Source: Candidatus Avanaerovorax faecigallinarum (GTDB lineage Bacteria > Bacillota > Clostridia > Peptostreptococcales > Anaerovoracaceae). From it: a DNA stretch of 64,000 bases. The stretch covers positions 14,670 through 78,669 of the forward strand of contig DXHZ01000093.1 in assembly GCA_019113145.1 (NCBI GenBank), in the 5' to 3' direction. Positions within the stretch are counted from its first letter, which is position 1. Every line of letters begins with the position of its first letter. The position numbers were made by a program, and so were the translations under genes. Under the pieces are notes generated by a model. It was not told the DNA's origin. It was given only the letters and a program-made list of their open reading frames with translations, and did not search any database. Below, piece by piece: positions 14,480 to 56,294 of this stretch.

Positions 14480-15574
14480 ATGGCTTTTAAATTACCTAAG
14501 TACATAGAACTTGACTTTACTCAGGAGAAATTTGTGAATGCGCCGGAGGCGACGCTTATCGCGTCTCCGAGAGATAAATCCGCACCGGACAACTTCCATG
14601 CGACTTCTATTTTTCCGGAATACTTCAAGATAAACGGTCAGTGGCTCCTCGCCGAGGACACCCGAATGGACTGCGTCGCCGTGTACGAAGACGGAAAGAT
14701 TCACGTGAGGGAATTCAGAAACGTGAAACAGGGCGATATGGTCGTGGTGGGAAGAACGGAGGACTGCGAGGACGGAATCTACGTTCACACAGACTGCTTT
14801 GAATCGGATAAGAAAAAGGAAGCTCAGGCTTTTGCGTTTAGACAGAGCAGAACCAGAGAGACGGCATTCAGCTACGACTACGCCAATCTCATAGAACTTT
14901 TAAAGCACGAGAAGGAGACGGGCGGATATGTAGTATGGGTTATGGGGCCTGCGTGCTCCTTCGACTATACCGCAAGGGAAAATTTCTCGAAGCTCATAGA
15001 AAACGGATATGTAAATGCGCTTCTTGCGGGAAACGCTTTAGCTACTCACGATTTGGAAGGAGCCCTTCTGGGCACCGCATTAGGGCAGGATATAAAGACC
15101 CAGGAACCGCATCCCAACGGTCATTATAACCACCTTGAGGCCATAAATCTCATAAACAGATACGGCTCTATTCCGGAATTCATAAAGCAGGAACATATAG
15201 ACAACGGCATAATTTACAGTTGCGTGAAAAACGACGTGCCTTTTGTCTTAAACGGCTCCATCAGAGACGACGGACCGCTGCCTGAGGTTTACGAGCACAC
15301 CTATGTGGGCCAGGACACCATCAGATCTCACGTCAGAAAGGCCACCACGGTCATAGGTATGGCGACGGTGCTTCACACCATAGCCACCGGAAACATGACC
15401 CCGACCTACAGGGTGCTGGCGGACGGAACCGTAAGGCCGGTGTACTTCTACATGGTGGACACTTCGGACTTTGCGGCCAGCAAGCTGGGAGACAGAGGAA
15501 GCCTCTCGGCAAAAGGCATAGTAACCAACGTACAGGATTTTCTCTCTAACGTTACAAAGGGACTCGGACTTTAA
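14480..15574 (+). CDS. LOR/SDH-conserved-domain (TIGR00300-like, ornithine cyclodeaminase/deoxyhypusine-synthase-fold) family protein
   Basis: 364 aa. Recalled signature GPACSF...LLAGNALATHDLEGALLGTALG...VLNGSIRDDGPLPEV. The family assignment is from memory only. Confidence 0.5.
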   Translation: MAFKLPKYIELDFTQEKFVNAPEATLIASPRDKSAPDNFHATSIFPEYFKINGQWLLAEDTRMDCVAVYEDGKIHVREFRNVKQGDMVVVGRTEDCEDGIYVHTDCFESDKKKEAQAFAFRQSRTRETAFSYDYANLIELLKHEKETGGYVVWVMGPACSFDYTARENFSKLIENGYVNALLAGNALATHDLEGALLGTALGQDIKTQEPHPNGHYNHLEAINLINRYGSIPEFIKQEHIDNGIIYSCVKNDVPFVLNGSIRDDGPLPEVYEHTYVGQDTIRSHVRKATTVIGMATVLHTIATGNMTPTYRVLADGTVRPVYFYMVDTSDFAASKLGDRGSLSAKGIVTNVQDFLSNVTKGLGL

Positions 15575-25798: not shown

Positions 25799-26320
25799 TT
25801 ATTCATCCCATGCAGGATAATATATTCCAGCCCTTTTATTGCGGCTTCCCGGATCAAAATTTTCCGTATTATCCTTGATTTCTAATGTTACCATTTTAAC
25901 AGAATATAAGCCTTCCTTTTCTGGATCAATGGTGTTGCTTTCCCAATCATTAAAATAGAGAAAATATGTTTCTTCTGATGTTGTTATCTCATATTCACAA
26001 TCAATTTCTCTGGCATGTTTTCCCGATTCATAATGGGTGTTACTTGAGTATCTTGTCCTTTTAATAGACTCAACCGTTCCGTGGTATTCTGAAAAAAGAT
26101 AATCACATCCCTCGCTGAAATCGCTTGTTTCATAAAGAGCTGTTTCTGAAAAAAGTCCTTTTAATGCATCGGCGTCGTGATTTTCTATCGCCATTATTAT
26201 TTGCTGGCATTTTTCATCATTTTTCTCTTCTTCAGTTTTGAATATGTTGTTTATATTACAGCCCGTCATACAAACAACAATTCCAAATAGAAGTAGAATA
26301 CACAGTATGTTTCTTTTCAT
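25799..26320 (-). CDS. Lipoprotein (DUF5104-like), IME cargo
   Basis: MKRNILCILLLFGIVVCMTGC lipobox. AT-rich coding sequence. Confidence 0.72.
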   Translation of the reverse strand: MKRNILCILLLFGIVVCMTGCNINNIFKTEEEKNDEKCQQIIMAIENHDADALKGLFSETALYETSDFSEGCDYLFSEYHGTVESIKRTRYSSNTHYESGKHAREIDCEYEITTSEETYFLYFNDWESNTIDPEKEGLYSVKMVTLEIKDNTENFDPGSRNKRAGIYYPAWDE

Positions 26321-26494
26321 GGCGGTTACTCCCATATATTTCAACCTTTTATCTTTGTTTGCCCTCTCCTGACATTTCCTACCCTAATTATAATGAAGTG
26401 TAATACTTCATGCAATGAGACGGTTTGAAAAACATATCAACTCATAGGGAAAGCAAAAAGTCAACCGAAACAGAGGAAGAAATTCTTTATATAA

Positions 26495-27181
26495 TTATTC
26501 TTGAATCCTTTTATAACATGTGTCCAGTCGTTGCTCAATCTCTTGCTGAGCCAAGTTTGCATCATCAAAAGAAAAAATCGCATTAGAAGCATTCTTACCT
26601 GCTTCACATCGGCACAAAAGCATTCCCCAGTTTGGGTAGGTATAATAATTTACTTCACCAGTTGAAAATCCTTGTTCTTCCGGCAATTTTACCTTTGGAA
26701 CATTTACAGAATTTAATATTTCTGAAATGGCGGCAGCGTATTCTGATATTGTGTTTTCCTCATCAGTTTCTAATCCTACCGTTTCGTTTTCGTCATCATA
26801 TCTTAAACGAAGATGATATTTTTCTGCAATTTCAGTAATGCGCTCGATATATCCTTGTTCTTCAAGCAACGTTTTCAAATAATCATCTCTGCAACCAAAA
26901 TGATAAGTATTATTATAGATGATATTTGATACACTAAATTTCACTCCGTTTTCATCGGAATATACCCCGCAACCTTCGTCTTTATCAAAAGGTGTAACGA
27001 TATTAAAAGTATGTTCAGGGTAAGTTTGCTGGAGACACATTATAATGCGTTCATCTGTATTTTTTCCGCTTAAAGGATTATCAGGATTATTAACATCCCG
27101 CACTAATTTACCTATTTCAGAACAGCCGGAAAAAGCCGTACATAATAATAGGATCATCAAAATCATTCCTATTTTTTTCAA
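26495..27181 (-). CDS. Lipoprotein of unknown function, IME cargo
   Basis: MKKIGMILMILLLCTAFSGC lipobox. No recognisable domain. Confidence 0.72.
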   Translation of the reverse strand: MKKIGMILMILLLCTAFSGCSEIGKLVRDVNNPDNPLSGKNTDERIIMCLQQTYPEHTFNIVTPFDKDEGCGVYSDENGVKFSVSNIIYNNTYHFGCRDDYLKTLLEEQGYIERITEIAEKYHLRLRYDDENETVGLETDEENTISEYAAAISEILNSVNVPKVKLPEEQGFSTGEVNYYTYPNWGMLLCRCEAGKNASNAIFSFDDANLAQQEIEQRLDTCYKRIQE

Positions 27182-27344
27182 AACATATCCCCCTCAAATC
27201 ATGGAACTTCGGTACGGTTTACCTATTGTTATTATACGATAAAACCTAACCATATTCAATCTTAGTGATCGCAGACATTTATCTGAACATTAGAAAATAT
27301 TGGATTTTTCATCTAAATCAAAAATAGACGCAATAGATAATATC

Positions 27345-27371
27345 AGCGGCAGGGATTTCTCCCCACCGCTC
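27345..27371 (-). terminator. Possible terminator hairpin after tnpV
   Basis: On the minus-strand RNA an 11-bp stem forms if two G-U pairs are allowed (AGCGGUGGGGA/UCCCUGCCGCU). The U-rich tract is delayed. Confidence 0.3.
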
Positions 27372-27374
27372 TCC

Positions 27375-27752
27375 TTATGCAAAGATGATTTCTTTTTCTA
27401 CAATCTCCTTTGCACACGCTCGTATGTTATTCATTCTCTGTGTCCATTCTAAAGCGTTTTCCACCTTTAACTGCTCTGTGATACCATGCGCCTGTTTCAT
27501 CTGCTCTGTAAGTCTTTCCATACGCTCCTGTGCTTGCTTATCTATATCGGCAAGGTAAGTATTCAGCCTGCCGCTTGTAAGTAGCGTTGTATATATATTT
27601 CTGTGGTATTCTTTCAGATACCGCAAGTGCCGCTGTCCCCACAAACCGATAGGCTGTTCTTTTTCGGCTGGTAAGATAAGACAAGGAATATAATAATCTC
27701 CTTGCAGTTCATACCATAGACCATTTTTATCATCGTAAATATACTTGTCCAT
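27375..27752 (-). CDS. tnpV: TnpV family protein
   Basis: MDKYIYDDKNGLWYELQGDYYIPCL...GLWGQRHLRYLKEYHRNIYTTLLTSGRLNTYLADIDKQAQERMERL...EWTQRMNNIRACAKEIV matches the Tn4451-type TnpV pattern. GGAGG lies 8 nt upstream. Confidence 0.85.
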   Translation of the reverse strand: MDKYIYDDKNGLWYELQGDYYIPCLILPAEKEQPIGLWGQRHLRYLKEYHRNIYTTLLTSGRLNTYLADIDKQAQERMERLTEQMKQAHGITEQLKVENALEWTQRMNNIRACAKEIVEKEIIFA

Positions 27753-27838
27753 TGAAAAATCCTCCGTTATAATATATTCGCACATACATCACAGTTCTCC
27801 GATTGCCACACTCTGTTATATCTTGTTATGAGATTTTG

Positions 27839-27858
27839 TTGCCCTTGCATTTGCCCTT
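27839..27858 (+). repeat. TTGCCCTT x2 at the integrase-distal end of the IME
   Basis: TTGCCCTT at 27839-27846 and 27851-27858, in the same orientation and with the same 12-bp period as 21561-21580. Confidence 0.4.
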
Positions 27859-27936
27859 ATGAGCAAGGAGGGAAAGAGTAAACTTGTGTGTAACCGTATA
27901 AAGAGATAAGGAGAACACATTGCGATAAATCCTTTA

Positions 27937-27948
27937 TTTTCAAGGCTT
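27937..27948 (+). repeat. Candidate attR core (TTTTCAAGGCTT)
   Basis: An exact 12-bp match to 21518-21529. Confidence 0.45.
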
Positions 27949-28080
27949 TTGGAGGATTTTATTAAAACACTGTAACCTCTGTTGAGAGGTCATAATTTAC
28001 TGATATTCAAATTTCGCTTTAAAAGTCGAACTCGCCCGTGTGAACCCGCCAGCTCGAACCCACGCGAGCAACTCACACGC

Positions 28081-46095: not shown

Positions 46096-47643
46096 ATGAG
46101 AGAAAAGGCTTTAAAGGCGCTGACAAAGGCCGCAGCGGACGGGATAGGAAAAATGTACGACGAAGGCAGATGCGCCGCTCTTTCCGAAATACTGGACGCC
46201 AGAGAAGCGAGAGCCGAGAGGCAGCAGGCTTTCATCGAGTCGGAGCGGCGGCAGTCCACAGCGTTGCAGCAGTTAGATGAGTCGCAGCAGTCCGGAAGTT
46301 GGCGGCAGTTTAGCGGCCCGCAGCAGTCCGGCAGCCTGCGGCAGTTTGCAGGCTCGCAAAAGCCGGAAGCGTTTTCACTCATCAGCTTTACATTAAACAT
46401 CGCGGGAGCAGTCAAAAGCTGCTCCCTGTTTTCGTGGGCATTTGACAGGGGCGTTGAGGTAATTGCCGAATCCCTTGCGGCAGCCGGAATTGAAACCGGA
46501 AAAGTAGAAATTACGGAGGGAATTGCAGGCTGCGAGTACACGGCGATTGCGTATGCAGAACCCGAAAGAGTAAAGCTCATAACCGCCGAAACAGAGGAGC
46601 TTCACCCGCTTGGGAGGATTTTCGATATAGATGTGATAAGACCTGACGGCGCAAAAGTCTCGAGAACGGATTTGGGCGCGACCGGCCGCACATGCATACT
46701 TTGCGGTAAACCAGTGTTTATATGCGGGCGGAGCAGAGCCCATTCCACCGAAGAGGTGCTCGAAAAGCAGATAGAGATAATGGCATCGGCCCGGGCAGAT
46801 GAGACGGCGCGCCGGATTTCCGGGCAGGCGGTAGATTCTCTTCTTGCGGAAGTCCACGTCGGCCCGAAGCCGGGCCTCGTGGACAGGTTCAACTCGGGAG
46901 CCCACAGGGATATGGACGAAAGCACTTTCATAAAGAGCGCCGAGTCGCTCCGCGGCTACTTCACGGACTGCGCATATGCGGGAATATATCTGGGCCTGAC
47001 GGGAGATGAAAGCATAACGGACAGCCTTGTCAGCCTCGGCAAAGAGGCTGAAAAGACCATGTTCGCCGCAACGGGCGGAATAAACACCCACAAAGGCGCT
47101 ATTTTCTCCATGGGCATTTTCGCCTGCGCCGCCGGAATGAGCGAGGCCGCAGAGGTGAGCCGGGGTGCTGAGTCGAGTAATACCCCGGGGAGCAGTTTCA
47201 GAGAAAACGTTTTGCATCTCGGTAAAATTCTGTCCGCCAAAACCGTCAGCACGCATACTGCCGGAAGCCGCGTAAAGAACGAATACGGAATCAGCGGCAT
47301 CAGAGGCGAAGCGGCGGCAGGTTATTCGACGGTTTTTGATACGGGTCTGGTCGTTTTAAAGGCGGAGCTTGCAGCAGGCGACGCGGAAGCCGCCGCGCTG
47401 AAGGCTTTGGCCGCAATAATCGCCGAAGCGGAAGACACCAACGTCATCGCCCGGGGCGGCACTGAGGCGGCAAAGTGGCTTAAATCCGAAGCTGCCGGCA
47501 TTTTGAAAAAATCCGGGGCTGCAGGCTTTGACGTAAGAGAGGCCCTTGCAGACCTCGACAAAGGGTGCATAGAGAAAAACATAAGCCCGGGCGGCAGCGC
47601 AGACCTTCTCGGACTGTGCCTGTTTGCGTCAGGGCGTGGCTGA
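46096..47643 (+). CDS. citG: Fused CitX (holo-ACP synthase) / CitG (triphosphoribosyl-dephospho-CoA synthase)
   Basis: The N-terminal half matches CitX (HPLGRIFDIDVI...CILCG). The C-terminal half matches CitG (KPGLVDRFNSGAHRDMD..., GINTHKGAIFS, ISPGGSADLL). Confidence 0.83.
   Translation: MREKALKALTKAAADGIGKMYDEGRCAALSEILDAREARAERQQAFIESERRQSTALQQLDESQQSGSWRQFSGPQQSGSLRQFAGSQKPEAFSLISFTLNIAGAVKSCSLFSWAFDRGVEVIAESLAAAGIETGKVEITEGIAGCEYTAIAYAEPERVKLITAETEELHPLGRIFDIDVIRPDGAKVSRTDLGATGRTCILCGKPVFICGRSRAHSTEEVLEKQIEIMASARADETARRISGQAVDSLLAEVHVGPKPGLVDRFNSGAHRDMDESTFIKSAESLRGYFTDCAYAGIYLGLTGDESITDSLVSLGKEAEKTMFAATGGINTHKGAIFSMGIFACAAGMSEAAEVSRGAESSNTPGSSFRENVLHLGKILSAKTVSTHTAGSRVKNEYGISGIRGEAAAGYSTVFDTGLVVLKAELAAGDAEAAALKALAAIIAEAEDTNVIARGGTEAAKWLKSEAAGILKKSGAAGFDVREALADLDKGCIEKNISPGGSADLLGLCLFASGRG
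46283..46353 (+). repeat. 36-bp in-frame tandem duplication inside the CitX half
   Basis: CGCAGCAGTCCGGAAGTTGGCGGCAGTTTAGCGGC (46283-46317) and CGCAGCAGTCCGGCAGCCTGCGGCAGTTTGCAGGC (46319-46353), encoding QQSGSWRQFSGP / QQSGSLRQFAGS. Confidence 0.8.
47588..47624 (+). repeat. 37-bp direct repeat, left copy (functional 3' end of citXG)
   Basis: CGGGCGGCAGCGCAGACCTTCTCGGACTGTGCCTGTT matches 50515-50551 at 36 of 37 positions. Confidence 0.9.
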
Positions 47644-47960: not shown

Positions 47961-48045
47961 TGCACTCGAGGATAACTCCTCCTGCAATGCTTACATAATT
48001 TCAAATAGCCAATCCCATATCCAATTACGCCATGTATAGGAATAA

Positions 48046-48651
48046 TTAAATATATGATAAATCACTCATTCGCTTCATAAAACGTTTGCCATTTTCGTTC
48101 TCAGACATGAAAGATACTCCTCCGGGGCGGCCTGACATATCTATAGAATTCAGCGCTTCAACAGTCAATTTAAGAAACATCGCATTGAAAACACCTAATA
48201 AATCGCCATGTGATACAATAATTATTTTTTCATCTTTATTCATCATAATTTCATTAAAGAACGGAAACAGCCTATTCCATTCATCTCTTCGGCTTTCAGC
48301 ATCGGAAAACATTCTATCATCTATAGTATTTTCTTGAACTTCAATATGGTCACGAAGCCATTGAACCGATTTACCAACACATTTTCCTAAATTTCTTTCT
48401 CGTAATTCTGTCCGCAGAATTGGATCAATTCCCAAATAACTTCCAACAATTTCTGCCGTATGTTTTGCTCTTAATAAGTCGGAAGAATACATCACGAAAT
48501 TTTTACCTTTCAGTTCTTTTGATAAGTTCCGGCCTATATTACTTGCTTGCTTAATCCCAAAGCCTGATAAATCCCAATCCGTCCATGAGCCAACCATACC
48601 ATTAGTGTGATGAACAGACTGTGTGTGCTGAATAGTAATTATATTTTTCAT
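48046..48651 (-). CDS. Histidine phosphatase (phosphoglycerate mutase-like) family protein
   Basis: ITIQHTQSVHHTNG... (an RHG-like start with Q-H), YSSDLLRAKHTAEIV, and IVSHGDLL near the C-terminus. Confidence 0.75.
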   Translation of the reverse strand: MKNIITIQHTQSVHHTNGMVGSWTDWDLSGFGIKQASNIGRNLSKELKGKNFVMYSSDLLRAKHTAEIVGSYLGIDPILRTELRERNLGKCVGKSVQWLRDHIEVQENTIDDRMFSDAESRRDEWNRLFPFFNEIMMNKDEKIIIVSHGDLLGVFNAMFLKLTVEALNSIDMSGRPGGVSFMSENENGKRFMKRMSDLSYI

Positions 48652-48731
48652 AACACCTCTCCTTCAAATATCTGCCTTCTTGCAGGGCAGATTTGAGTGA
48701 TACCACAGCTTCATAACTGCATTAATTAATA

Positions 48732-48929
48732 TTATCTTCTTTCCCCGTTTTTATCAAAAGTCTTTCTCAAGGCTATTTCTGTCGGAAAAATAGATCCGAT
48801 TAGAAGTATAAGCTGCACGCCTAAGATAATTAAGCCTCCAATGCCGACACAGTTTATATTCCTGTTGATTACCAAAAGCATGAGTATGATTGTGAGTGGA
48901 AGCGTAATCACTCCGCAGGTATACCACAC
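48732..48929 (-). CDS. Small hydrophobic ORF (possible membrane peptide or gene remnant)
   Basis: 65 aa with two hydrophobic segments. No clear RBS was inspected. Confidence 0.25.
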   Translation of the reverse strand: MWYTCGVITLPLTIILMLLVINRNINCVGIGGLIILGVQLILLIGSIFPTEIALRKTFDKNGERR

Positions 48930-49011
48930 CTTATCGCACTATTCAAGCCAATTATAACACATAAAGAAAACCGCTTCCATCTTCGGGCTGCGGATTGAAA
49001 TTGAACTTACC

Positions 49012-49119
49012 TTGCGCACTGCTGAACGTTTTAGAAAAAATCATATTGCGCATCGTTGGCGTTTTTTGAAAATTTATCTTGCGCACTGTTTATATTTTTG
49101 ATAGAATATAAATTGCGTA
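49012..49119 (+). promoter_or_regulatory. Four phased TTGCGCA sites plus the promoter of the ATPase gene
   Basis: TTGCGCA at 49012, 49046 and 49079, and TTGCGTA at 49113, with spacing of 34, 33 and 34 bp. The third site doubles as a -35 (TTGCGC), 17 nt before TAGAAT (49102-49107). Confidence 0.5.
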
Positions 49120-49142
49120 TTAGCGGAAAGGGTGAGATTTCA

Positions 49143-50501
49143 ATGATTATAAAACGTAAAGTATATGACAAGCTTCTTAGCTGGAAAAATACGCACAAGG
49201 GAAAGAAGGCTGTTCTGATAGAGGGAGCCAGACGCATCGGAAAGTCGACGATAGCTGAAGAATTTGCACGTAATGAATATAGATCCTACATTCTGGTAGA
49301 CTTCAATCTCGCTTCAAAGAACGTGCGGAATCTGTTCGACGATCTCACCAATCTTGACATTTTCTTTCAGGCTTTGTCGCTGGAATATAATACGCGTCTT
49401 TACCGGAGAGAGAGCCTGATTATATTCGACGAAATCCAGAAGTTTCCCAAGGCACGTGAGGCGGTAAAGTACCTCGTGGCAGACGGACGCTACGACTACC
49501 TGGAAACAGGTTCGCTCATATCTATCCGGGAGAGCGTGGAGAACATCACTATTCCATCGGAGGAGCGGAAATTGAAGATGTATCCGCTGGACTTCGAGGA
49601 GTTTGCGGAATTCATGGGAGAAGAGATTCTGCTGGAGCATATAAGAGACTGCTGGGAGAAAAAAGTGCCCCTCGAAAGACCGATTCACGGCAGGGCGATG
49701 CGCCTTTTCAAGGAGTATATGCTCGTGGGCGGAATGCCTCAGGCTGTACTGGCGTATAAGGAAAACGACAGAGATTTTGCGGCGGCCGATATTGAGAAGA
49801 GAGACATTCTGGAACTGTACCGCGACGATATAAAAAAGTCGGCGAAGAGATATAGCTCCAAAGTATCGGCGGTATTTGAAAACATACCGGGATACCTGTC
49901 AAAGCATGAAAAAAAGATTGTGCTCAGCGAAATAGACAAAAACGGAACCTTCGATAAATATGACGAGCCGCTCTTCTGGCTGGATGATTCCATGATATGC
50001 AATCTCTGCTACAGGTGCAGTGATCCGAACGTAGGATTCGCACTTAACATGGAAAATTCATCCGTAAAATGCTACATGGGCGATACCGGACTTCTCGTAA
50101 GTCTTGCCTTTGGAGAAAACGAACTTGCAGAAAACAATCTGTATAAACAGATTATGGAGGGAAGACTTTCCATAAATCAGGGCATGCTTTACGAAAACGC
50201 CATAGCTCAGATGATTATTGCTAAAGGGAAGAAATTGTACTTTTACACCAGATACAACCGGGATAAGCACAGAAACGACATCGAAATAGACTTTCTTCTT
50301 TCCAATGACAGCAAAGTCAACTTCAAGATTATGCCGCTTGAGGTGAAATCATCGACCAATTACTCGGCATCGTCACTCGGCGAGTTCAGCAAGATGTACA
50401 AGAGGAGGATAAGCGAATCATACATTATTCACCCGAAAAACCTGTCAGTGACGGTAGAGGTTACCAAGATACCTCCATATATGTTTTTTGCGGCATTTTA
50501 A
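49143..50501 (+). CDS. AAA-family ATPase with DUF4143-type C-terminal domain
   Basis: MIIKRKVYDKLLSWK...AVLIEGARRIGKSTI (Walker A), IIFDEIQ (Walker B). The C-terminal region is typical of the AAA_14/DUF4143 architecture. Confidence 0.85.
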   Translation: MIIKRKVYDKLLSWKNTHKGKKAVLIEGARRIGKSTIAEEFARNEYRSYILVDFNLASKNVRNLFDDLTNLDIFFQALSLEYNTRLYRRESLIIFDEIQKFPKAREAVKYLVADGRYDYLETGSLISIRESVENITIPSEERKLKMYPLDFEEFAEFMGEEILLEHIRDCWEKKVPLERPIHGRAMRLFKEYMLVGGMPQAVLAYKENDRDFAAADIEKRDILELYRDDIKKSAKRYSSKVSAVFENIPGYLSKHEKKIVLSEIDKNGTFDKYDEPLFWLDDSMICNLCYRCSDPNVGFALNMENSSVKCYMGDTGLLVSLAFGENELAENNLYKQIMEGRLSINQGMLYENAIAQMIIAKGKKLYFYTRYNRDKHRNDIEIDFLLSNDSKVNFKIMPLEVKSSTNYSASSLGEFSKMYKRRISESYIIHPKNLSVTVEVTKIPPYMFFAAF

Positions 50502-50645: not shown

Positions 50646-50671
50646 AAAAGCGGGGATGACCCCGCTTTTTC
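50646..50671 (+). terminator. Rho-independent terminator (probably the ancestral citXG terminator)
   Basis: AAAAGCGGGG / CCCCGCTTTT with loop ATGA and a T-run. Confidence 0.7.
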
Positions 50672-50686
50672 TGTAATTCTTACGTA
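50659..50686 (+). promoter_or_regulatory. Sigma-I-type promoter candidate upstream of sigI-rsgI
   Basis: ACCCCG (50659-50664), N18, CGTA (50683-50686), followed by TTCTATA. It has the same bipartite motif and spacing as 52292-52319. Reported sigma-I promoters have a C-rich -35 and a CGWA -10. Confidence 0.45.
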
Positions 50687-50713
50687 TTCTATAGTAAAGA
50701 GGAGACCGTCGCC

Positions 50714-51439
50714 ATGAAGGACGAACACAGAATAGTCGAGCAGGTGAATGCTGCCAGAAAAGACAGAGCAGCTGCGGACAGTCTTATAAGAGAATATATG
50801 CCCTTTATAAAATCCGAAACGGCGCGATTCATGGGCAGACCTCCTGTGGAAGGAGAAGACGATGAGCTGAGCATAGCCATGATTGCCTTTCATGAGGCGA
50901 TAGTGTCATATTCTGCAGACAGAGGAGCTTTCCTGAAATTTGCGGCAATGATTATAAAAAGCAGGCTTATAGATTTTAGCAGAAAAGAGCAGAGGCATAA
51001 AACCGTAATATCACTGGATACTCCTTCTGACGACGAAGGAGGCACCATTGGAGAAACAATTGCCGACGAACGGGACTATCAGGACGAAGTGGTGACGAGA
51101 GAGGCGACTCGAAAAGAAATAGAGGAACTTACGGCTGAGATGGCAAAGTTCGGCGTAAGCCTTACCGATGTTGCGGAAAACTGCCCGAAGCAGGACAGAA
51201 CTCTTAACGCCTGTAAAAGGGCCCTTAAGTACGCCATAGATAATCATGAAATCATGAAGGATTTTCTCGCTTCGAGGAAGCTGCCCATAAGCAGTCTGGC
51301 GGCAGGGAGCGGCGTTGAGAAAAAAACTCTTGAAAGACACAGAAAGTATATGGTGGCCCTCATGCTGATTTATACTAACGGATTTGAGATAATAAGAGGT
51401 CATCTGAGACATATGGCTGAGGGGGTGAGTGCAAAATGA
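50714..51439 (+). CDS. sigI: RNA polymerase sigma-I factor
   Basis: The pattern DDELSIAMIAFHEAIVSYS...FAAMIIKSRLIDFSRKE...FGVSLTDVAENCPKQDRTLNA...KLPISSLAAGSGVEKKTLERHRKYMVALMLI parallels B. subtilis SigI. Confidence 0.82.
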   Translation: MKDEHRIVEQVNAARKDRAAADSLIREYMPFIKSETARFMGRPPVEGEDDELSIAMIAFHEAIVSYSADRGAFLKFAAMIIKSRLIDFSRKEQRHKTVISLDTPSDDEGGTIGETIADERDYQDEVVTREATRKEIEELTAEMAKFGVSLTDVAENCPKQDRTLNACKRALKYAIDNHEIMKDFLASRKLPISSLAAGSGVEKKTLERHRKYMVALMLIYTNGFEIIRGHLRHMAEGVSAK

Positions 51440-52278
51440 AATATCTGGTAATGGAGTGCCGCCCTGGCTGCGCGGTTCTGCTGGATGAAGAGGGACGCTT
51501 CCTGAAGGCTGTAAATCCCGGATATCAGGTGGGACAAAGGGTGAATAATCCACGACTTATGGAAGATAAGATTCGCAGGAAGACAGGGAAGTGGATTATA
51601 AGCGGTGCAGCAGCCGTAGCAGCCTGCTTTATAGCGGTATTCGGTATAAATTACTATAACGACTACATGAGCACGTACTCTACCATATATATGAACATAA
51701 ACCCGTCCGTCAGCATAGACCTTAACCACAGTGGGAATGTGGTAGGTCTGGACGGCGAAAATGAAGACGGAGATATCCTCATAGAAGGTTACGATTACCG
51801 CGGGAAAGAAAAAACCGAAGTAGCCGACGATCTGGTGGACAAGGCGATAGACATGGGATTTCTGTCTGAAGGGGGAACAGTGTCATTCTCTATAGATGCT
51901 CCGGAAGAAGCTTTGTTCAGAGAATATGGAACCGAGATGAGAAACGAGGTCAGCCACCATCTGGAAAATGTGATTACAGTAAATATAGAGGTTGTAAAAT
52001 ATTCAGATGTGGAGAAACAGGATTCGGAACCTGAGACTGAACCTGAGACTCAGCGGAAGGAACCGCAGCCTCAGCCTCAGTCACAGTCGCAGCCGCAGAC
52101 CCAGACGAAGCCTCAGACTCAGACGAAGCCGACAACACCGGTGACTCCTAAGCCGTCGGGAGATTCGGGATATGGCAATTCCGGATACACCTCTCAAGGA
52201 AACAGCGGATATGATGATGACTCGAGAAACAGTGATTATGATGACTCGGAAAATAGCGGGTACGATAACGATGACTAA
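51436..52278 (+). CDS. rsgI: Anti-sigma-I factor RsgI-like protein with Asn-Pro juxtamembrane domain and Q/P linker plus SGY(D/N)-rich tail
   Basis: ATGA overlap with sigI. The RsgI_N-like start is MKYLVMECRPGCAVLLDEEGRFLKAV. It has one TM helix. Extracytoplasmic segment is IYMNINPSVSIDL... The tail is GDSGYGNSGYTSQGNSGYDDDSRNSDYDDSENSGYDNDD. Confidence 0.75.
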   Translation: MKYLVMECRPGCAVLLDEEGRFLKAVNPGYQVGQRVNNPRLMEDKIRRKTGKWIISGAAAVAACFIAVFGINYYNDYMSTYSTIYMNINPSVSIDLNHSGNVVGLDGENEDGDILIEGYDYRGKEKTEVADDLVDKAIDMGFLSEGGTVSFSIDAPEEALFREYGTEMRNEVSHHLENVITVNIEVVKYSDVEKQDSEPETEPETQRKEPQPQPQSQSQPQTQTKPQTQTKPTTPVTPKPSGDSGYGNSGYTSQGNSGYDDDSRNSDYDDSENSGYDNDD

Positions 52279-52291
52279 AAAAACAACGGCA

Positions 52292-52319
52292 ACCCCGTTT
52301 TTCGAAAGAGCTTTACGTA
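52292..52319 (+). promoter_or_regulatory. Sigma-I-type promoter candidate upstream of the lipoprotein-VTC-DUF4956-CotH genes
   Basis: ACCCCG (52292-52297), N18, CGTA (52316-52319), followed by ATCTATA. The -35 again lies in the descending arm of a small hairpin (AACGG/CCGTT). Confidence 0.45.
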
Positions 52320-52371
52320 ATCTATATGTACAAGGCAAAACTACAGAAAAAAACAGAAAGGAACCCTGATC

Positions 52372-53463
52372 ATGAAAACGAGAAAAAAACTATTAACAGC
52401 GGTATCTTCCCTGGCTATAGCGGCTATGGTTCTTCTGACAGGATGCGGCGGAACTGCACAGAGCGAAGTGCCTGAAGTAAACGAAACGGGAGTTATCACA
52501 TTAAGCGTAAATCCTGAAATTAAAATTGAATATGACAAAGACGGACTGGTTACAGGAATAACTGGAGCGAATGACGATGGAAAGGCTATAGTAGAGGCAT
52601 ATCCGGACTACATAGGGAAAGAATGCAGAACCGTTCTGGCCGAACTGATTGCGGAGATTAACGAGGCCGGATATTTTGTAGACGATATCGATGGACACGA
52701 GAAGAACATAGTCATCCAGCTGGAGCCGGGTTCGATTATGCCGAGCGAGGATTTTCTCACAGTGATAAGTGACAGCACCAGGGAAGCCGTGAAGAATCTC
52801 AAGCTCGGATCAGGAATAGTAACTATCGACGATGACGATTACGATCAGTCTTATGCAAAAGAGGGGCAGCCTTCGAGATATATCACTCTTGCCAAGGCGC
52901 AGGAAATAGCCCTTGCTCAGGCAGGTGTAAGCGCTAAAGACGCAGTTTTCGAAGATAAGGAATTTGATCATGACGATGGAACCCCTGTGTTTGAGCTTGA
53001 GTTCAAGGCAGGAGGGGTGGAGTACGAATATGATGTACATGCGGTGACCGGAAAGGTTATAAAGGCGCAGCATGAAAAGATTAAGACCCCTTCATCTTCA
53101 GCAGGATCAGCCGCTTCTTCATCTTCCGCTCAGAAACCGGCAACATCGGGAGGAACGGGCGGAGCCGCGTATCAGGATACGGATTATGGCCCGGGAAATG
53201 ATGGCGTAACCGACTACAATAACACCGATTACGGCCCGAATAACGATGGCGTAACCGACTACCACTACACCGACTATAACAGCGGTAATTCTGCATCCGG
53301 CGGAGTCAGCTCCAATCATGGCGGAGGCGACTCCGGATATGACAACGGAGATTCCGGATACAATAATTCCGGCTACGGCAACACAGGCTATGACGACGGC
53401 AACACCGGTTATGACGATGGCGACTCCGGATACGACAACGGAGATTCCGGATATGACAACTAA
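52372..53463 (+). CDS. Lipoprotein with RsgI-like Asn-Pro domain, PepSY domain and Tyr/Asp/Gly-rich repeat tail
   Basis: LLTGC lipobox. VITLSVNPEIKIEYDKDGLVTGITGANDDGKAIVEAY aligns with the RsgI ectodomain. The PepSY-like segment is ITLAKAQEIALAQAGVSAKDAVFEDKEFDHDDGTPVFELEF...VHAVTGKVIK. The tail has TDYGPxNDGVTDY x2 and (DSGYDNG)n. Confidence 0.8.
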   Translation: MKTRKKLLTAVSSLAIAAMVLLTGCGGTAQSEVPEVNETGVITLSVNPEIKIEYDKDGLVTGITGANDDGKAIVEAYPDYIGKECRTVLAELIAEINEAGYFVDDIDGHEKNIVIQLEPGSIMPSEDFLTVISDSTREAVKNLKLGSGIVTIDDDDYDQSYAKEGQPSRYITLAKAQEIALAQAGVSAKDAVFEDKEFDHDDGTPVFELEFKAGGVEYEYDVHAVTGKVIKAQHEKIKTPSSSAGSAASSSSAQKPATSGGTGGAAYQDTDYGPGNDGVTDYNNTDYGPNNDGVTDYHYTDYNSGNSASGGVSSNHGGGDSGYDNGDSGYNNSGYGNTGYDDGNTGYDDGDSGYDNGDSGYDN

Positions 53464-54151
53464 CAATAATAACAGCACGAAACTGAGACATGAACTTAAG
53501 CACCGGATCAACCTGAGGGAAGATCTGGTGCTTTCCCAAAGGTTGAGAAAACTCTTTGAAAGAGACAGCCATTGCGGAACGGACGGCAGTTACCGTGTTA
53601 CCAGTCTGTATTTTGACACACCCTACGACGATGCGCTCCGGGATAAGCTAAGCGGAATCAGCAGAAGAGAGAAGTTCAGAATCAGGTACTATGGGGACAA
53701 TCCGACGTTTATAAAACTGGAAAAGAAATCGAAGATAAACGGGCTTTCGGAAAAGCTGAGCGTTGTCCTTAGACCGGATGAAGCGGAGAGAATACTGTCA
53801 GGAGATATAAGCTTCATGCTTGACAGCGGAAAGCATCTTCTGGAAGAACTCTACTCGAAGATGAACGGTGAAGGACTGGCGCCAAAGACGGTTGTCTCAT
53901 ACAGCCGGGAGGCTTTTGTATATGCGCCGGGGAACGTGAGAATCACGCTGGACAGAGATGTGAGAACAAGTCTGGGCTCGACGGACTTTCTGAATCCAGA
54001 CGTATTCAGAATGCCGGTGATGGATGGTATAACGGTGCTGGAAGTGAAATATGACAGATTTCTTCCGGAAATAGCAGCAATGGCGGTTCAGGTTCCGGGA
54101 AGAAGAGCATCTGCATGTTCGAAGTACGCCCTTTGCAGGCGGTTTGATTAA
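53453..54151 (+). CDS. VTC domain-containing protein (polyphosphate polymerase-like, CYTH/triphosphate tunnel fold)
   Basis: LRHELKHRINLREDLVLSQRLRKLF...GSYRVTSLYFDTPYDDALRDK...FRIRYY...LEKKSK is the bacterial VTC-domain pattern. Its ATG overlaps the lipoprotein gene by 11 nt. Confidence 0.85.
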   Translation: MTTNNNNSTKLRHELKHRINLREDLVLSQRLRKLFERDSHCGTDGSYRVTSLYFDTPYDDALRDKLSGISRREKFRIRYYGDNPTFIKLEKKSKINGLSEKLSVVLRPDEAERILSGDISFMLDSGKHLLEELYSKMNGEGLAPKTVVSYSREAFVYAPGNVRITLDRDVRTSLGSTDFLNPDVFRMPVMDGITVLEVKYDRFLPEIAAMAVQVPGRRASACSKYALCRRFD

Positions 54152-54172: not shown

Positions 54173-54844
54173 ATGACCTTTCGCGACATATTTAAATCGG
54201 GATTTATGGAGAATATGACTGCCGTATTGATGCTTGATATGGTAACGGCGCTTGCCCTGGCATTTCTTCTGGGTCTTTACATTTTCTTTATCTACAGGAA
54301 AACATACAGCGGCGTAATGTATTCTCCAGGATTTGGCGTGACGCTGATAGGACTTGCTCTCATAACGACCATGCTTATTATGACTGTAGCAAGTAATGTG
54401 GTTCTGTCCCTCGGTATGGTTGGAGCTCTTTCCATAGTGAGGTTTCGCGCTGCAATAAAAGAACCGGTGGACATACTGTTTCTCTTCTGGAGCATAGCGG
54501 TGGGAATAGTGCTGGCTGCAGGGCTCATCCCCCTTGCGGTTTTTGGAAGCATTTTCATAGGAATCGTGCTGCTTTTGTTCGCATCGAAAAAAACCCCGGA
54601 CACCCCGTACATTCTCATAATCCACTGTGAGGACGAGAGAAGGGAGACGGAGACCAAAGAATATGTAAAAAAACGGGTGAAGAAGATGAACCTGAAGAGC
54701 AAAAGCGTGTCTGACGGAATCATAGAGCTTAACTATGAGGTCAGGCTGATTGACGACGACAGCTCCTTCGTGAATAAGCTTCAGAAAACAGACGGAGTAT
54801 CACGGGTGGTTCTGGTGTCGTACAACGGAGATTACATGGTTTAA
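54173..54844 (+). CDS. DUF4956 domain-containing membrane protein
   Basis: It has 4-5 TM helices with GALSIVRFRAAIKEPVDILFLFW and a soluble ~75-aa C-terminal domain. It is a usual partner of VTC and CotH genes. Confidence 0.85.
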   Translation: MTFRDIFKSGFMENMTAVLMLDMVTALALAFLLGLYIFFIYRKTYSGVMYSPGFGVTLIGLALITTMLIMTVASNVVLSLGMVGALSIVRFRAAIKEPVDILFLFWSIAVGIVLAAGLIPLAVFGSIFIGIVLLLFASKKTPDTPYILIIHCEDERRETETKEYVKKRVKKMNLKSKSVSDGIIELNYEVRLIDDDSSFVNKLQKTDGVSRVVLVSYNGDYMV

Positions 54845-54872: not shown

Positions 54873-56294
54873 TTGATAAAACACAGACACATCGACAAAA
54901 TCTGCATATGTGCGGCGGCAGCGGCAGTTCTGATAACGGTTGTCCTTTATTTCGGGGAAGACATGGGAATCCAGCGGGCGTCAGAAAATCCGGGATACTC
55001 CTACAGGCTTTTTGACGACAGCAGGGTTCACACCGTAAACATTCTCTGCGACGATTGGGAAGAATTTCTCAAAGAGGCTCCGGAGGAGGAATATATAAGC
55101 TGCGCCGTTGAAATAGACGGGGAAAGGTTCGAGAATGTGGGACTCAGAGCCAAGGGCAATAATTCTCTAAGTCTTACGGAGGAATACGGCCTCTCGAGAT
55201 ACAGCCTGAAACTGGAGTTCGACCATTTTACGGACGGAGGAAATTACTACGGACTGGACAAATTCTCTCTGGATGCTTCGTTTCAGGACAACAGCTACCT
55301 TAAGACATACATGGCCTACGATATGATGGATTTCATGGGCGTGGCCTCGCCTCTCTGCAGCTTCACAGACGTTTTCGTAAACGGGGAACCGTGGGGGCTG
55401 TTTCTCGCTGTGGAGGAGCCTGAGGAGGCCTTTGTCCGGAGAAATTTCGGAAGAAATCACGGACAGCTGTACAAGCCTGACTACAGGTCTTTGGAAGATG
55501 AAAACGGAGATATAGCCTTAAAATATCTTGGAGCCGATGAGAAGCTGTATCCGGGCATATTCGAAAACGCAAAGTTCAAAACAGATAAGGGCGACAGAAT
55601 GAGAGTCATCAAGGCTCTTGAGATCCTCGATTCCGGTGAGAATATCGAAAGAGCCGTGGATACAGAACAGACACTGCGGTATTTCGTTGTATCGGTATTT
55701 GTCATGAACTGGGACAGCTATGCGGGGCATACGGGTCACAACTATTTTCTCTATGAAAAAGACGGAATTCTGACCATTCTGCCGTGGGACTACAATCTGG
55801 CTTTCGGAACCTATGCCTTCGGAATGTCCGAACCGATAAGGGACACGGAGGTTCTCATAAACTGGCCCGTGGACACGCCTGCTGAAGGTGATGTGATGCT
55901 TAACAGACCGCTCTACCACAACCTGATGAAGAACGATAAATATTTTCGGCGATACCACGAGCTGTTCAGACGGTTCCTATCAGAATACTTTTTCAGCGGC
56001 GAGTTCGAGAAGACTTTACAGGATGCGGAATCCCTGATAGCCCCTCACGTGGAAAGTGATCCTACAGCCTTCTGTTCCCGCGAAGATTTTCGCCTTGCGG
56101 CAGACACCCTCTATGAAGTGTGCATGCTGCGGGCCGAGAGCATAGAAAAACAGCTTTCGGGAGAACTGCCTTCAACGATTAAAGAGCAAGAGGGTTTCAC
56201 GGGAGAATATGTGGACTGTTCTGCCGTGGACATACGCGATCTGGGAGATTTCGGAGATTTGGAGACTGCCGCGGCGAGGACTGCAGGCAGGTAA
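54873..56294 (+). CDS. CotH kinase family protein with N-terminal signal anchor
   Basis: TTG start. TM anchor is ICICAAAAAVLITVVLYF. CotH-like core is GLRAKGNNSL...YSLKLEFDHF...LDKFSLDASFQDNSYLKTYMAYD...FVNGEPWGLFLAVEEPE...NYFLY. Confidence 0.86.
   Translation: MIKHRHIDKICICAAAAAVLITVVLYFGEDMGIQRASENPGYSYRLFDDSRVHTVNILCDDWEEFLKEAPEEEYISCAVEIDGERFENVGLRAKGNNSLSLTEEYGLSRYSLKLEFDHFTDGGNYYGLDKFSLDASFQDNSYLKTYMAYDMMDFMGVASPLCSFTDVFVNGEPWGLFLAVEEPEEAFVRRNFGRNHGQLYKPDYRSLEDENGDIALKYLGADEKLYPGIFENAKFKTDKGDRMRVIKALEILDSGENIERAVDTEQTLRYFVVSVFVMNWDSYAGHTGHNYFLYEKDGILTILPWDYNLAFGTYAFGMSEPIRDTEVLINWPVDTPAEGDVMLNRPLYHNLMKNDKYFRRYHELFRRFLSEYFFSGEFEKTLQDAESLIAPHVESDPTAFCSREDFRLAADTLYEVCMLRAESIEKQLSGELPSTIKEQEGFTGEYVDCSAVDIRDLGDFGDLETAAARTAGR

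Follow-up and report, generated by a model that had tools for sequence, protein, structure and literature searches.

The 64,000-nucleotide stretch of Candidatus Avanaerovorax faecigallinarum analyzed here (GenBank assembly GCA_019113145.1, contig DXHZ01000093.1, forward-strand positions 14,670 to 78,669), referred to throughout as the window, carries a head-to-tail array of six plus-strand genes between positions 50714 and 56294. In order, these encode a sigma-I factor (sigI), an RsgI-type anti-sigma factor (rsgI), a lipoprotein, a VTC-domain protein, a DUF4956 membrane protein and a predicted CotH-family kinase (cotH); their coordinates, together with those of the sites, tails and promoters discussed below, are collected in Table 1. 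The rsgI gene lies directly downstream of sigI, its start overlapping the sigI stop by 4 nucleotides, and the six-gene order, with sigI-rsgI-lipoprotein followed by VTC-DUF4956-cotH, is kept in most of the 23 genome loci compared. RsgI and the lipoprotein both contain a SEAL domain and both end in the same kind of repeat tail, predicted to be disordered. In related gut Clostridia this tail is restricted to loci with an outward-facing CotH gene downstream, which points to an undescribed cell-surface signaling circuit.

Table 1. Features of the sigI-to-cotH array, given as positions in the window.
Feature	Positions	Strand	Evidence
Sigma-I-type promoter 1, upstream of sigI (ACCCCG, T-tract, CGTATTCTA)	50659..50691	+	Pattern match, conserved in related loci
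sigI (sigma-I factor)	50714..51439	+	NCBIfam SigI E=4e-54, under equivalog cut-offs; Pfam Sigma70_r2 match
rsgI	51436..52278	+	Pfam RsgI_M 73.5 bits; AlphaFold2 model; Foldseek 8t9n, 6ivs
RsgI Asn89-Pro90, predicted autocleavage site	51700..51705	+	Invariant in 60 homologues; beta1-beta2 turn of model
RsgI tail: five S-x-Y units, D/N/G/S-rich, predicted disordered	52156..52275	+	Sequence, AlphaFold2 model, shuffle test
Sigma-I-type promoter 2, upstream of the lipoprotein operon (ACCCCG, T-tract, CGTAATCTA)	52292..52324	+	Pattern match, conserved in related loci
SEAL-PepSY lipoprotein	52372..53463	+	Pfam RsgI_M 54.6 bits, PepSY 41.4 bits; AlphaFold2 model; Foldseek 8t9n
Lipoprotein Asn47-Pro48, predicted autocleavage site	52510..52515	+	Invariant in 56 homologues; beta1-beta2 turn of model
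Lipoprotein 15-residue repeats DTDYGPxNDGVTDYN, two copies and a TDY remnant	53173..53280	+	Tandem Repeats Finder period 45; 629-unit logo
Lipoprotein terminal [S/T]-G-Y-[D/N/G] units	53320..53460	+	BLASTP, repeat and shuffle analyses; pLDDT <50
VTC-domain protein, polyphosphate-polymerase-like tunnel enzyme	53453..54151	+	Pfam VTC 1.9e-34
DUF4956 membrane protein	54173..54844	+	Pfam DUF4956; conserved within cluster
CotH-family kinase (predicted) with N-terminal signal-anchor	54873..56294	+	Pfam CotH (PF08757) 191.9 bits

Two SEAL-domain proteins and a predicted outward-facing kinase

A first-pass annotation, made from the DNA letters alone, had aligned the RsgI ectodomain by eye with the N-terminal domain of the lipoprotein, had placed an Asn-Pro dipeptide in each and had regarded the lipoprotein as a paralogue of RsgI, and all of these points are borne out. 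The two ectodomains align by BLASTP with 34% identity over 61 residues (E = 1e-8), and both proteins exceed the 25.3-bit cut-off of the Pfam family RsgI_M (PF23750, the SEAL domain; scores in Table 1). A comparison of the two family profiles with hhalign, built from 60 RsgI and 56 lipoprotein homologues, returned a probability of 99.8% and E = 3e-28 over 97 columns. The Asn-Pro codons lie exactly where the annotation had put them and specify N89-P90 in RsgI and N47-P48 in the lipoprotein. Together with the residues of a nearby N-x-D-G motif (N109, D111 and G112 in RsgI; N67, D69 and G70 in the lipoprotein), they are invariant in all 60 and all 56 homologues, respectively. By these sequence comparisons, the lipoprotein carries a true paralogue of the RsgI SEAL domain, and it may act as the decoy, partner or co-sensor of RsgI that the annotation had proposed.

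The predicted structures agree with this assignment. In AlphaFold2 models, the SEAL cores of both proteins reach a predicted local distance difference test score (pLDDT) of about 90 and show a matching order of strands and helices. The SEAL domain of Bacillus subtilis RsgI (8t9n) was the top Protein Data Bank match of both models in Foldseek (probability 1.00), with target-normalized template modeling scores of 0.76 for the lipoprotein and 0.77 for RsgI. The structure prediction suggested in the annotation therefore places both ectodomains in the SEAL fold, in which a beta-sheet is packed on two helices. Additionally, in the cleaved Clostridium thermocellum RsgI structures 8her and 8hep, chain B starts at the position aligned with Pro90 of the window RsgI. 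Autoproteolysis of RsgI proteins at Asn-Pro, which the first pass had given as background, is established in the literature (PMC10328401, PMC10556640), and by analogy both proteins of the window should cleave at this dipeptide and stay assembled.

RsgI comprises a putative anti-sigma-I domain (residues 1–40), predicted to be cytoplasmic, a single transmembrane helix (residues 55–77 in the model) ahead of the SEAL domain (81–196), a linker of Pro, Gln, Thr and Lys (197–240) and an acidic [S/T]-x-Y tail (241–280). Its match to Pfam RsgI_N is weak (18.2 bits against a cut-off of 25); residues 1–40 were modeled with pLDDT above 90 and matched the N-terminal domain of RsgI1 (6ivs) in Foldseek with a probability of 1.00 and E = 0.022. 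The lipoprotein begins with a signal peptide (MKTRKK, then a hydrophobic stretch) and a predicted lipobox, LTGC, preceded by a further Leu (LLTG-C25), of which G24 and C25 are invariant in the 56 homologues. It continues with the SEAL domain (41–169), a PepSY domain (PF03413, residues 171–231) that scores above the 24-bit cut-off and is confidently modeled, a Ser-rich linker, two TDYGPxNDGVTDY units and finally SGY/TGY units. More than 1250 homologues of the lipoprotein share the RsgI_M plus PepSY architecture, mostly in Lachnospiraceae-like genomes from gut metagenomes.

CotH and all 22 of its orthologues examined carry, at the N-terminus, two to four Lys or Arg residues followed by a strongly hydrophobic helix, and this conserved signal-anchor places the kinase domain outside the membrane. 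With the lipobox and the CotH signal-anchor in place, the earlier proposal that the tails lie on the same side of the membrane as the CotH domain holds. Alignment to Bacillus cereus CotH (5jd9) shows that the Asp residues of N-W-D and P-W-D-Y are kept (N-F-D and P-W-D-Y in the B. cereus protein), and from their spacing they appear to correspond to D228 and D251 of B. subtilis CotH.

Repeat tails and their association with cotH

The tails of RsgI and the lipoprotein, both modeled with pLDDT below 50 and predicted to be disordered, consist of [S/T]-x-Y-[D/G] units. Low-complexity tails of the D/N-S-G-Y-D/N type had been noted on both proteins in the first pass, and shuffling shows that the order of their residues is non-random: Ser or Thr stands at position −2 of the Tyr in 5/5 tyrosines of the RsgI tail (P = 3.5e-4) and in 12/13 of the lipoprotein tail (P < 1e-5). 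The interval first assigned to the lipoprotein tail stands, whereas that assigned to the RsgI tail (52048–52278) includes the linker rich in Pro, Gln, Thr and Lys, with SGY units only from about 52156 to 52275. The doubled TDYGPxNDGVTDY sequence of the lipoprotein, also reported earlier, was recovered by Tandem Repeats Finder as a 45-nucleotide repeat at 53182–53273. The two tails are 63% identical by BLASTP and share DNA stretches of at most 16 nucleotides, so that their similarity in the window is one of peptide motif and not the trace of a recent copy. On the same grounds we rejected a recent duplication or gene conversion event as the only cause, though another locus (L011, described below) shows that exchange does take place.

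The motif is widely kept among homologues. At least three copies are present within the last 120 residues of 113 of 120 RsgI homologues, the search for such tails in other RsgI proteins having been proposed with the initial annotation, and 67 of these 113 include at least one full TDYGPxxDGxTDY unit. The motif is likewise borne by 115 of 120 lipoprotein homologues, on predicted disordered tails of about 110 residues. In place of the short TDYGPxNDGVTDY pair of the window, these contain up to 10 or more copies of a near-invariant 15-residue repeat, DTDYGPNNDGVTDYN; GDSGYDNGDSGYDN is another example of a tail peptide. Following the 15-residue repeats are [S/T]-[N/D/G]-Y-[D/G]-D units, most tails finish in YDD or DDD, and Ser or Thr occupies position −2 in 95% of the terminal tyrosines. 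In a logo compiled from 629 repeat units of the homologues, almost every position is 97–100% conserved. The tails consist of 29–30% Asp, with Lys and Arg together contributing from 0.7% in the lipoprotein to 1.6% in the RsgI homologues. Chance or compositional likeness of the tails is ruled out by the shuffle tests, the position-specific logo and a very narrow distribution across proteins.

The breadth of that distribution was assessed with HMMER, using the 98-residue lipoprotein tail as a query against 1.84 billion representative proteins, and only 54 matches were obtained. A recognizable SEAL and/or PepSY domain is present in 41 of them; nine are tail-only or frameshifted fragments (eight of 61–165 residues and one of 242 residues, several with adaptor-derived residues), and four are unrelated low-complexity proteins. 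The SEAL-bearing matches include PepSY-less lipoproteins, RsgI proteins and one ECF-type anti-sigma factor with a SEAL-PepSY-tail arrangement. Across this protein set the tail occurs almost only on SEAL proteins, and no open reading frame of the window or of the 23 genome loci carries the motif apart from rsgI and the lipoprotein gene. A Pfam scan of three tail sequences at E-values up to 10 matched no family, TSP_3 included, and an NCBIfam scan returned nothing relevant to the tails. With no curated model matching, a known repeat family (thrombospondin type 3, EF-hand-like and dockerin repeats included) was ruled out, and the motif string was not found in any paper of the literature searched.

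The repeats also damage assemblies. Five of the 23 genome loci (L009, L010, L014, L015 and L017) end inside the lipoprotein tail, several database proteins contain adaptor-like peptides (VSYTHL, CLLYTS, DVYKRQ) beside the repeats, and three rsgI genes are frameshifted immediately before the tail, although the frameshift of L036 is present on 8 contigs and may be real. Entries showing such repeat-related assembly or frameshift trouble are L034-L036 and the proteins P0246, P0271-P0273, P0276 and P0287, and tails will be under-counted in metagenome genomes. A further protein, P0283 (217 residues), joins the N-terminal fragment of an M50 (site-2 protease-like) protein to a SEAL end with a TDY tail. 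It is probably a chimeric assembly and would be of interest if real, M50 proteases being those that carry out intramembrane cleavage of RsgI.

A link between the tails and CotH, proposed in the first-pass annotation, has strong comparative support. The operon includes cotH, with or without VTC and DUF4956, at 26/26 evaluable loci with motif tails and at 0/5 motif-less loci; motif and cotH are thus jointly present or jointly absent at 31/31 evaluable loci, a match with a nominal exact probability of about 1e-5 for loci that are not independent. The 26 include distant PepSY-less lipoproteins and an ECF-type anti-sigma fusion. Three loci with distant tail-bearing SEAL lipoproteins (L005, L024 and L028) have cotH directly after the lipoprotein gene, and VTC and DUF4956 lie between the tail-bearing SEAL gene and cotH in L029, L030 and the ECF variant L026/L027. 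At the five motif-less loci (L020, L021 and L031-L033), sigI-rsgI lies upstream of a lipoprotein gene encoding extra PepSY domains, cotH, VTC and DUF4956 are all absent, and RsgI has either a poly-Asp tail or none, in both cases motif-free. In a neighbor-joining tree of the lipoprotein SEAL domains, these five loci occupy three or more distinct positions, nested among those that bear tails, which indicates repeated joint loss of motif and cotH.

Three apparently motif-less RsgI homologues with cotH present (P0232, P0194 and P0184), taken up as a prospective test of the link, were considered as counter-examples and rejected; their gene calls are frameshifted, and a TDYG-type tail follows just downstream in another frame. 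Two variant arrangements were also recorded. In L026/L027 (7435–12117), an ECF-type sigma factor (Sigma70_r2 and r4_2) is followed by a single anti-sigma protein with SEAL, PepSY and a TDY tail and then by VTC-DUF4956-cotH, with a GSP_synth-like gene after cotH; there is no separate lipoprotein, the anti-sigma protein taking on its part as well as that of RsgI. In L029, a second and shorter cotH (408 residues, 1770–2996) lies just upstream of sigI, besides the cotH at the end of the operon.

The composition of the tails raises the alternative that they are cation- or wall-binding modules, chelating Ca2+ through repeated D-x-D...N-x-D-G-x-x-D-x-x-D loops or attaching to a cationic polymer of the wall or matrix, so that RsgI senses pull, the lipoprotein is likewise anchored and CotH is merely co-regulated. 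About 29% Asp with almost no Lys or Arg would suit this role, as would the N-x-D-G-x-x-D-x-x-D stretch within the 15-residue unit, which presumably resembles thrombospondin-type or EF-hand-like calcium loops; no Pfam repeat family, as noted above, recognizes the tails. Poly-Asp tails of RsgI persist at cotH-less loci, so acidity has a CotH-independent role, and the CotH-VTC-DUF4956 set accompanies operons for the exopolysaccharide Pel, a cationic polymer, in other Gram-positives. Binding of this kind nevertheless leaves the near-invariant Tyr and the Ser or Thr at −2 unexplained, and it is the [S/T]xY motif, not acidity, that is lost from both proteins whenever cotH is absent. We therefore regard this explanation as possible but on the unlikely side.

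The existence of a sigI-rsgI-SEAL-lipoprotein trio without tails or cotH would also be expected if the lipoprotein served chiefly as an inhibitor or chaperone, of the PepSY type, for a secreted enzyme, with an ancestral SEAL domain shared with RsgI and with tails that reflect neutral drift or gene conversion. The similarity of the L011 tails in DNA shows that sequence exchange does happen. Many tail-bearing SEAL lipoproteins beside cotH, however, have no PepSY domain at all, the 629 repeat units agree position by position, and the window tails share their motif without DNA identity, indicating selection on the peptide. Neutral drift, moreover, would not follow the presence of cotH in 31/31 loci, and an account centered on PepSY is highly improbable.

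Within a genome, the tails of RsgI and the lipoprotein resemble each other more than they do across genomes: 5-mer sharing is 0.105 for tails of the same genome and 0.041 for tails of different genomes (permutation P < 5e-5), and same-genome tails tend to one variant, for example SGY, TNY/SNY or GPGSDG. The two tails of L011 are 83% identical in DNA over 227 nucleotides, and this identity, set beside the motif shared without DNA identity in the window, indicates that both sequence exchange and peptide selection occur. Matching flavors (SGY, TNY, the GPGSDG variant) are what binding partners would be expected to keep, and the tails might accordingly be tyrosine "sticker" regions of low complexity through which RsgI and the lipoprotein co-assemble in a surface layer or condensate, with the lipoprotein holding or pulling RsgI and CotH tuning the assembly. 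Their [G/S]-Y-[G/S/D]-type units stand in a disordered context rich in Gly, Ser, Asn and Asp, and such Tyr units resemble eukaryotic Tyr-based low-complexity domains. The high net negative charge should, however, oppose self-association unless cations bridge the chains, and a common reader (CotH) or gene conversion explains the within-genome matching equally well; we consider co-assembly of this kind decidedly unlikely. Cation or wall binding, tail-tail association and a PepSY role are each less likely as the sole explanation, because all leave unexplained that the motif, and not acidity, tracks cotH.

Promoters, proposed circuit and relation to known systems

The pattern ACCCCN{17,21}CGTAWTCTA has two matches in the 64 kb of the window, against 0.01 expected. 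They end 23 nucleotides upstream of the sigI start codon and 48 nucleotides upstream of the lipoprotein start codon, and in 21 related loci the pattern is found at just those two positions and nowhere else. The elements are ACCCCG, 18 nucleotides and CGTA(A/T)TCTA, compared with ACCCCC, 19 nucleotides and CGAA in the Bacillales sigma-I consensus, published as ACCCCC--AA-15N-CGAA (PMC4711584), and CGWA is the general sigma-I −10 motif (PMC10575876). With CGWA at −10 and a C-rich −35, both promoters keep to the spacing given in the literature, which suggests that sigma-I would drive its own operon as well as the lipoprotein-VTC-DUF4956-cotH operon.

Promoter 2 overlaps a weak hairpin at 52285–52299. 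A strong terminator-like hairpin with a T-run and a stem of 10 base pairs, called on the minus strand, lies at 50646–50669 and reads AAAAGCGGGG-atga-CCCCGCTTTT on the plus strand. The ACCCCG −35 element of the sigI promoter forms the 3' arm of this hairpin, and the same bases would serve both in ending transcription of the upstream gene and in recognition of the promoter. The possibility that ACCCCG and the T-run are a mere terminator was rejected; elsewhere the pairing partner has moved or is absent, whereas ACCCCG and CCGTAWTCTAT are fixed.

We give roughly an even chance to a sigma-I/RsgI regulated-proteolysis circuit with an unusual sensor, a tail copied from a co-regulated lipoprotein, and an unusual regulon, in which CotH recognizes the tails. 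This proposal builds on the homology, fold, invariant residues, gene order, promoters, topology and tail-cotH co-variation established here, whereas its cleavage and phosphorylation steps and the direction of its feedback are ones that we infer. RsgI would self-cleave between N89 and P90, its halves held together via a shared beta-sheet, and loss of the outer half would lead to intramembrane cleavage and release of sigma-I, which would then read the promoters before sigI-rsgI and lipoprotein-VTC-DUF4956-cotH. The lipoprotein, self-cleaved at N47-P48, would be kept on the membrane only by a 23-residue lipidated beta-strand and could therefore be shed.

Outward-facing CotH would recognize, and probably phosphorylate on Ser/Thr, the [S/T]-x-Y-[D/G] tails of both proteins, as B. 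subtilis CotH does with the neighboring CotB and CotG. CotH is known to polyphosphorylate repeat regions of proteins from its own gene cluster (PMC7821199), and by this analogy CotH probably targets both tails, whose [S/T]-x-x-D spacing would be compatible with an acidophilic Ser/Thr kinase. The state of the tail, whether modified, bound or pulled, would set sigma-I activity, and the abundant lipoprotein would act as co-substrate or competitor, closing a feedback loop. A feedback or competition arrangement is likely because RsgI carries the tail of the protein that it regulates. Kinase recognition is the best-supported function of the tails, because the motif co-varies with cotH, tails and kinase share a compartment and there is a precedent in CotH phosphorylation.

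Several points weigh against kinase recognition within a sigma-I circuit. The co-occurrence of motif and cotH fits tails that sense a CotH product equally well as tails that are its substrate. The loci are phylogenetically non-independent and the tree is a simple neighbor-joining one, and at L005 a poly-Asp, motif-free RsgI tail stands beside a lipoprotein with 14 motifs and cotH, so the RsgI copy of the motif is not obligatory. The CotH substrates known so far are basic repeats rich in Ser and Lys, in contrast to the acidic, Tyr-rich tails described here, and we know of no ATP source outside the membrane. Furthermore, a conserved T-tract follows the −35 core where clostridial sigma-I promoters carry an A-tract (AA or AAA), so that the sigma-I dependence of both promoters is a prediction from sequence.

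The CotH-recognition reading can be extended to a substrate-mimic sensor, in which CotH phosphorylates the lipoprotein tails, the RsgI copy of the tail lets phosphorylation or occupancy of the surface layer control SEAL dissociation and hence sigma-I, and VTC-DUF4956 exports polyphosphate. The exported polyphosphate would serve as phosphate donor or as partner of the phosphorylated tails, and as a donor it would solve the absence of ATP outside the membrane. In this full form the extension is unlikely.

Individually, the SEAL domain, Asn-Pro cleavage, SEAL-PepSY proteins, CotH kinases and the cotH-VTC-DUF4956 module are already known, and several described systems share parts of the array. The window RsgI is laid out like that of the B. 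subtilis SigI/RsgI system: a single transmembrane helix follows the anti-sigma-I domain, which in the window protein is a predicted one, and leads to a juxtamembrane SEAL domain that contains Asn-Pro and then to a C-terminal disordered region, which in B. subtilis RsgI is the sensor (PMC9732909). The disordered region of the window RsgI differs in ending in a defined acidic [S/T]xY repeat, which is also present on a second, co-regulated SEAL protein and co-occurs with cotH, and the predicted regulon is a kinase/polyphosphate-polymerase-like/lipoprotein operon instead of wall-synthesis genes. RsgI1-9 of C. thermocellum likewise have Asn-Pro between beta1 and beta2 and a conserved N-x-D nearby (Asn117 and Asp119 in RsgI2), and their sigma-I-type promoters have a CGWA −10. 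One of their regulons includes a CotH-domain protein, the sigma-I6-dependent CotH-dockerin gene product cseP. Their C-terminal sensors, however, are carbohydrate-binding, whereas the window sensor is a repeat tail with no folded domain, and the window −35 resembles the Bacillales ACCCCC type, followed by a T-tract instead of an A-tract.

SEAL-PepSY fusions without an anti-sigma domain or transmembrane segment have been described (Brogan et al. 2023, PMC10556640), and the window lipoprotein matches them in having SEAL followed by PepSY, no anti-sigma domain and conserved catalytic hairpin residues. It differs in that its family has a predicted disordered repeat tail of about 110 residues (115/120 close homologues), and the lipoprotein contradicts the statement in that study that SEAL-PepSY fusions lack a disordered region. 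The pairing of a SEAL-PepSY lipoprotein with RsgI, its own sigma-I-type promoter and its linkage to cotH were not found in the literature searched, and neither was any description of the conserved tail repeat, of its restriction to SEAL proteins, of the sharing or co-evolution of a tail between an anti-sigma factor and a co-regulated lipoprotein, or of cotH linkage under sigma-I-type promoters.

The B. subtilis cotB/cotH/cotG genes also place a CotH-family kinase beside low-complexity, Ser/Thr-containing repeat proteins. There the repeats are the kinase targets, basic (Ser/Lys/Arg; SKR) and phosphorylated in the mother-cell cytoplasm for spore-coat assembly, whereas the window repeats are acidic and Tyr-rich, with a kinase that faces outside and a connection to an anti-sigma factor. 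Since the tails are not basic SKR sequences, we did not file them as CotB/CotG homologues, and only the logic of a kinase beside its substrate is compared. In mucins of the MUC1 type, a membrane-adjacent, autocleaving SEA or SEA-like domain non-covalently holds a releasable tandem-repeat fragment, as proposed here. The tandem-repeat region of that fragment is subject to modification in mucin biology. The fold is only analogous, however, and the window repeats are C-terminal and not N-terminal to the domain, the lipoprotein is anchored by a lipid and RsgI by a signal-anchor helix, and phosphorylation is expected in place of glycosylation. Gram-positive pel operons contain the same three-gene accessory module of cotH, a polyphosphate polymerase and DUF4956, whereas the module of the window is unattached to pel and comes after a sigma-I-type promoter and the gene of a SEAL lipoprotein.

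SEAL-type anti-sigma factors are thought to be mechanotransducers, with a sensor that is pulled or bound. The system of the window supplies a short conserved sensor motif, a second SEAL protein that bears this motif and is predicted to be under the control of the same sigma factor, and, in CotH, an enzyme candidate whose gene co-varies with the motif. It also provides the first candidate substrates and a candidate regulator for the CotH/polyphosphate-polymerase-like/DUF4956 module, which is widespread in Gram-positives and is found attached to operons for Pel biofilms. With more than 1250 lipoprotein homologues, the family is abundant among the Clostridia of the gut.

Gene overlap and flanking sequence

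The lipoprotein and VTC genes overlap by 11 nucleotides, and this overlap recurs in L001, L003, L006 and L018. The last SGYD unit of the lipoprotein, at 53440–53463 (GGA GAT TCC GGA TAT GAC AAC TAA), holds a GGAGA Shine-Dalgarno-like sequence as well as the VTC ATG (53453), which is why the two genes are probably translationally coupled; the overlap may add constraint on the terminal Y-D-(D/N) of the lipoprotein. A longer open reading frame of 277 residues at 53318–54151 was rejected as the VTC gene. Its first 45 or so residues are tail repeats read in another frame, its VTC domain starts at residue 57, and the orthologues begin at ATG 53453.

The array is flanked by unrelated genes, namely citrate lyase genes, a histidine phosphatase gene and an AAA_14/DUF4143 ATPase gene upstream, and MFS, M55 peptidase, acetyltransferase and RND genes downstream. 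Directly upstream of sigI, a low-GC stretch (48000–50500, GC 0.41) contains the histidine phosphatase and ATPase genes. The ATPase was found in L002 and had no match in the 8 kb upstream in L001 (strains 95–99% identical), so this segment looks strain-variable. A second low-GC patch (0.36) lies at 26001–28000. Further upstream of the array, positions 46096–47643 encode a fused CitX-CitG protein of 515 residues, in which an N-terminal region of about 90 residues with a short internal repeat (QQSGSWRQFSGPQQSGSLRQFAGSQ) precedes the CitX domain.

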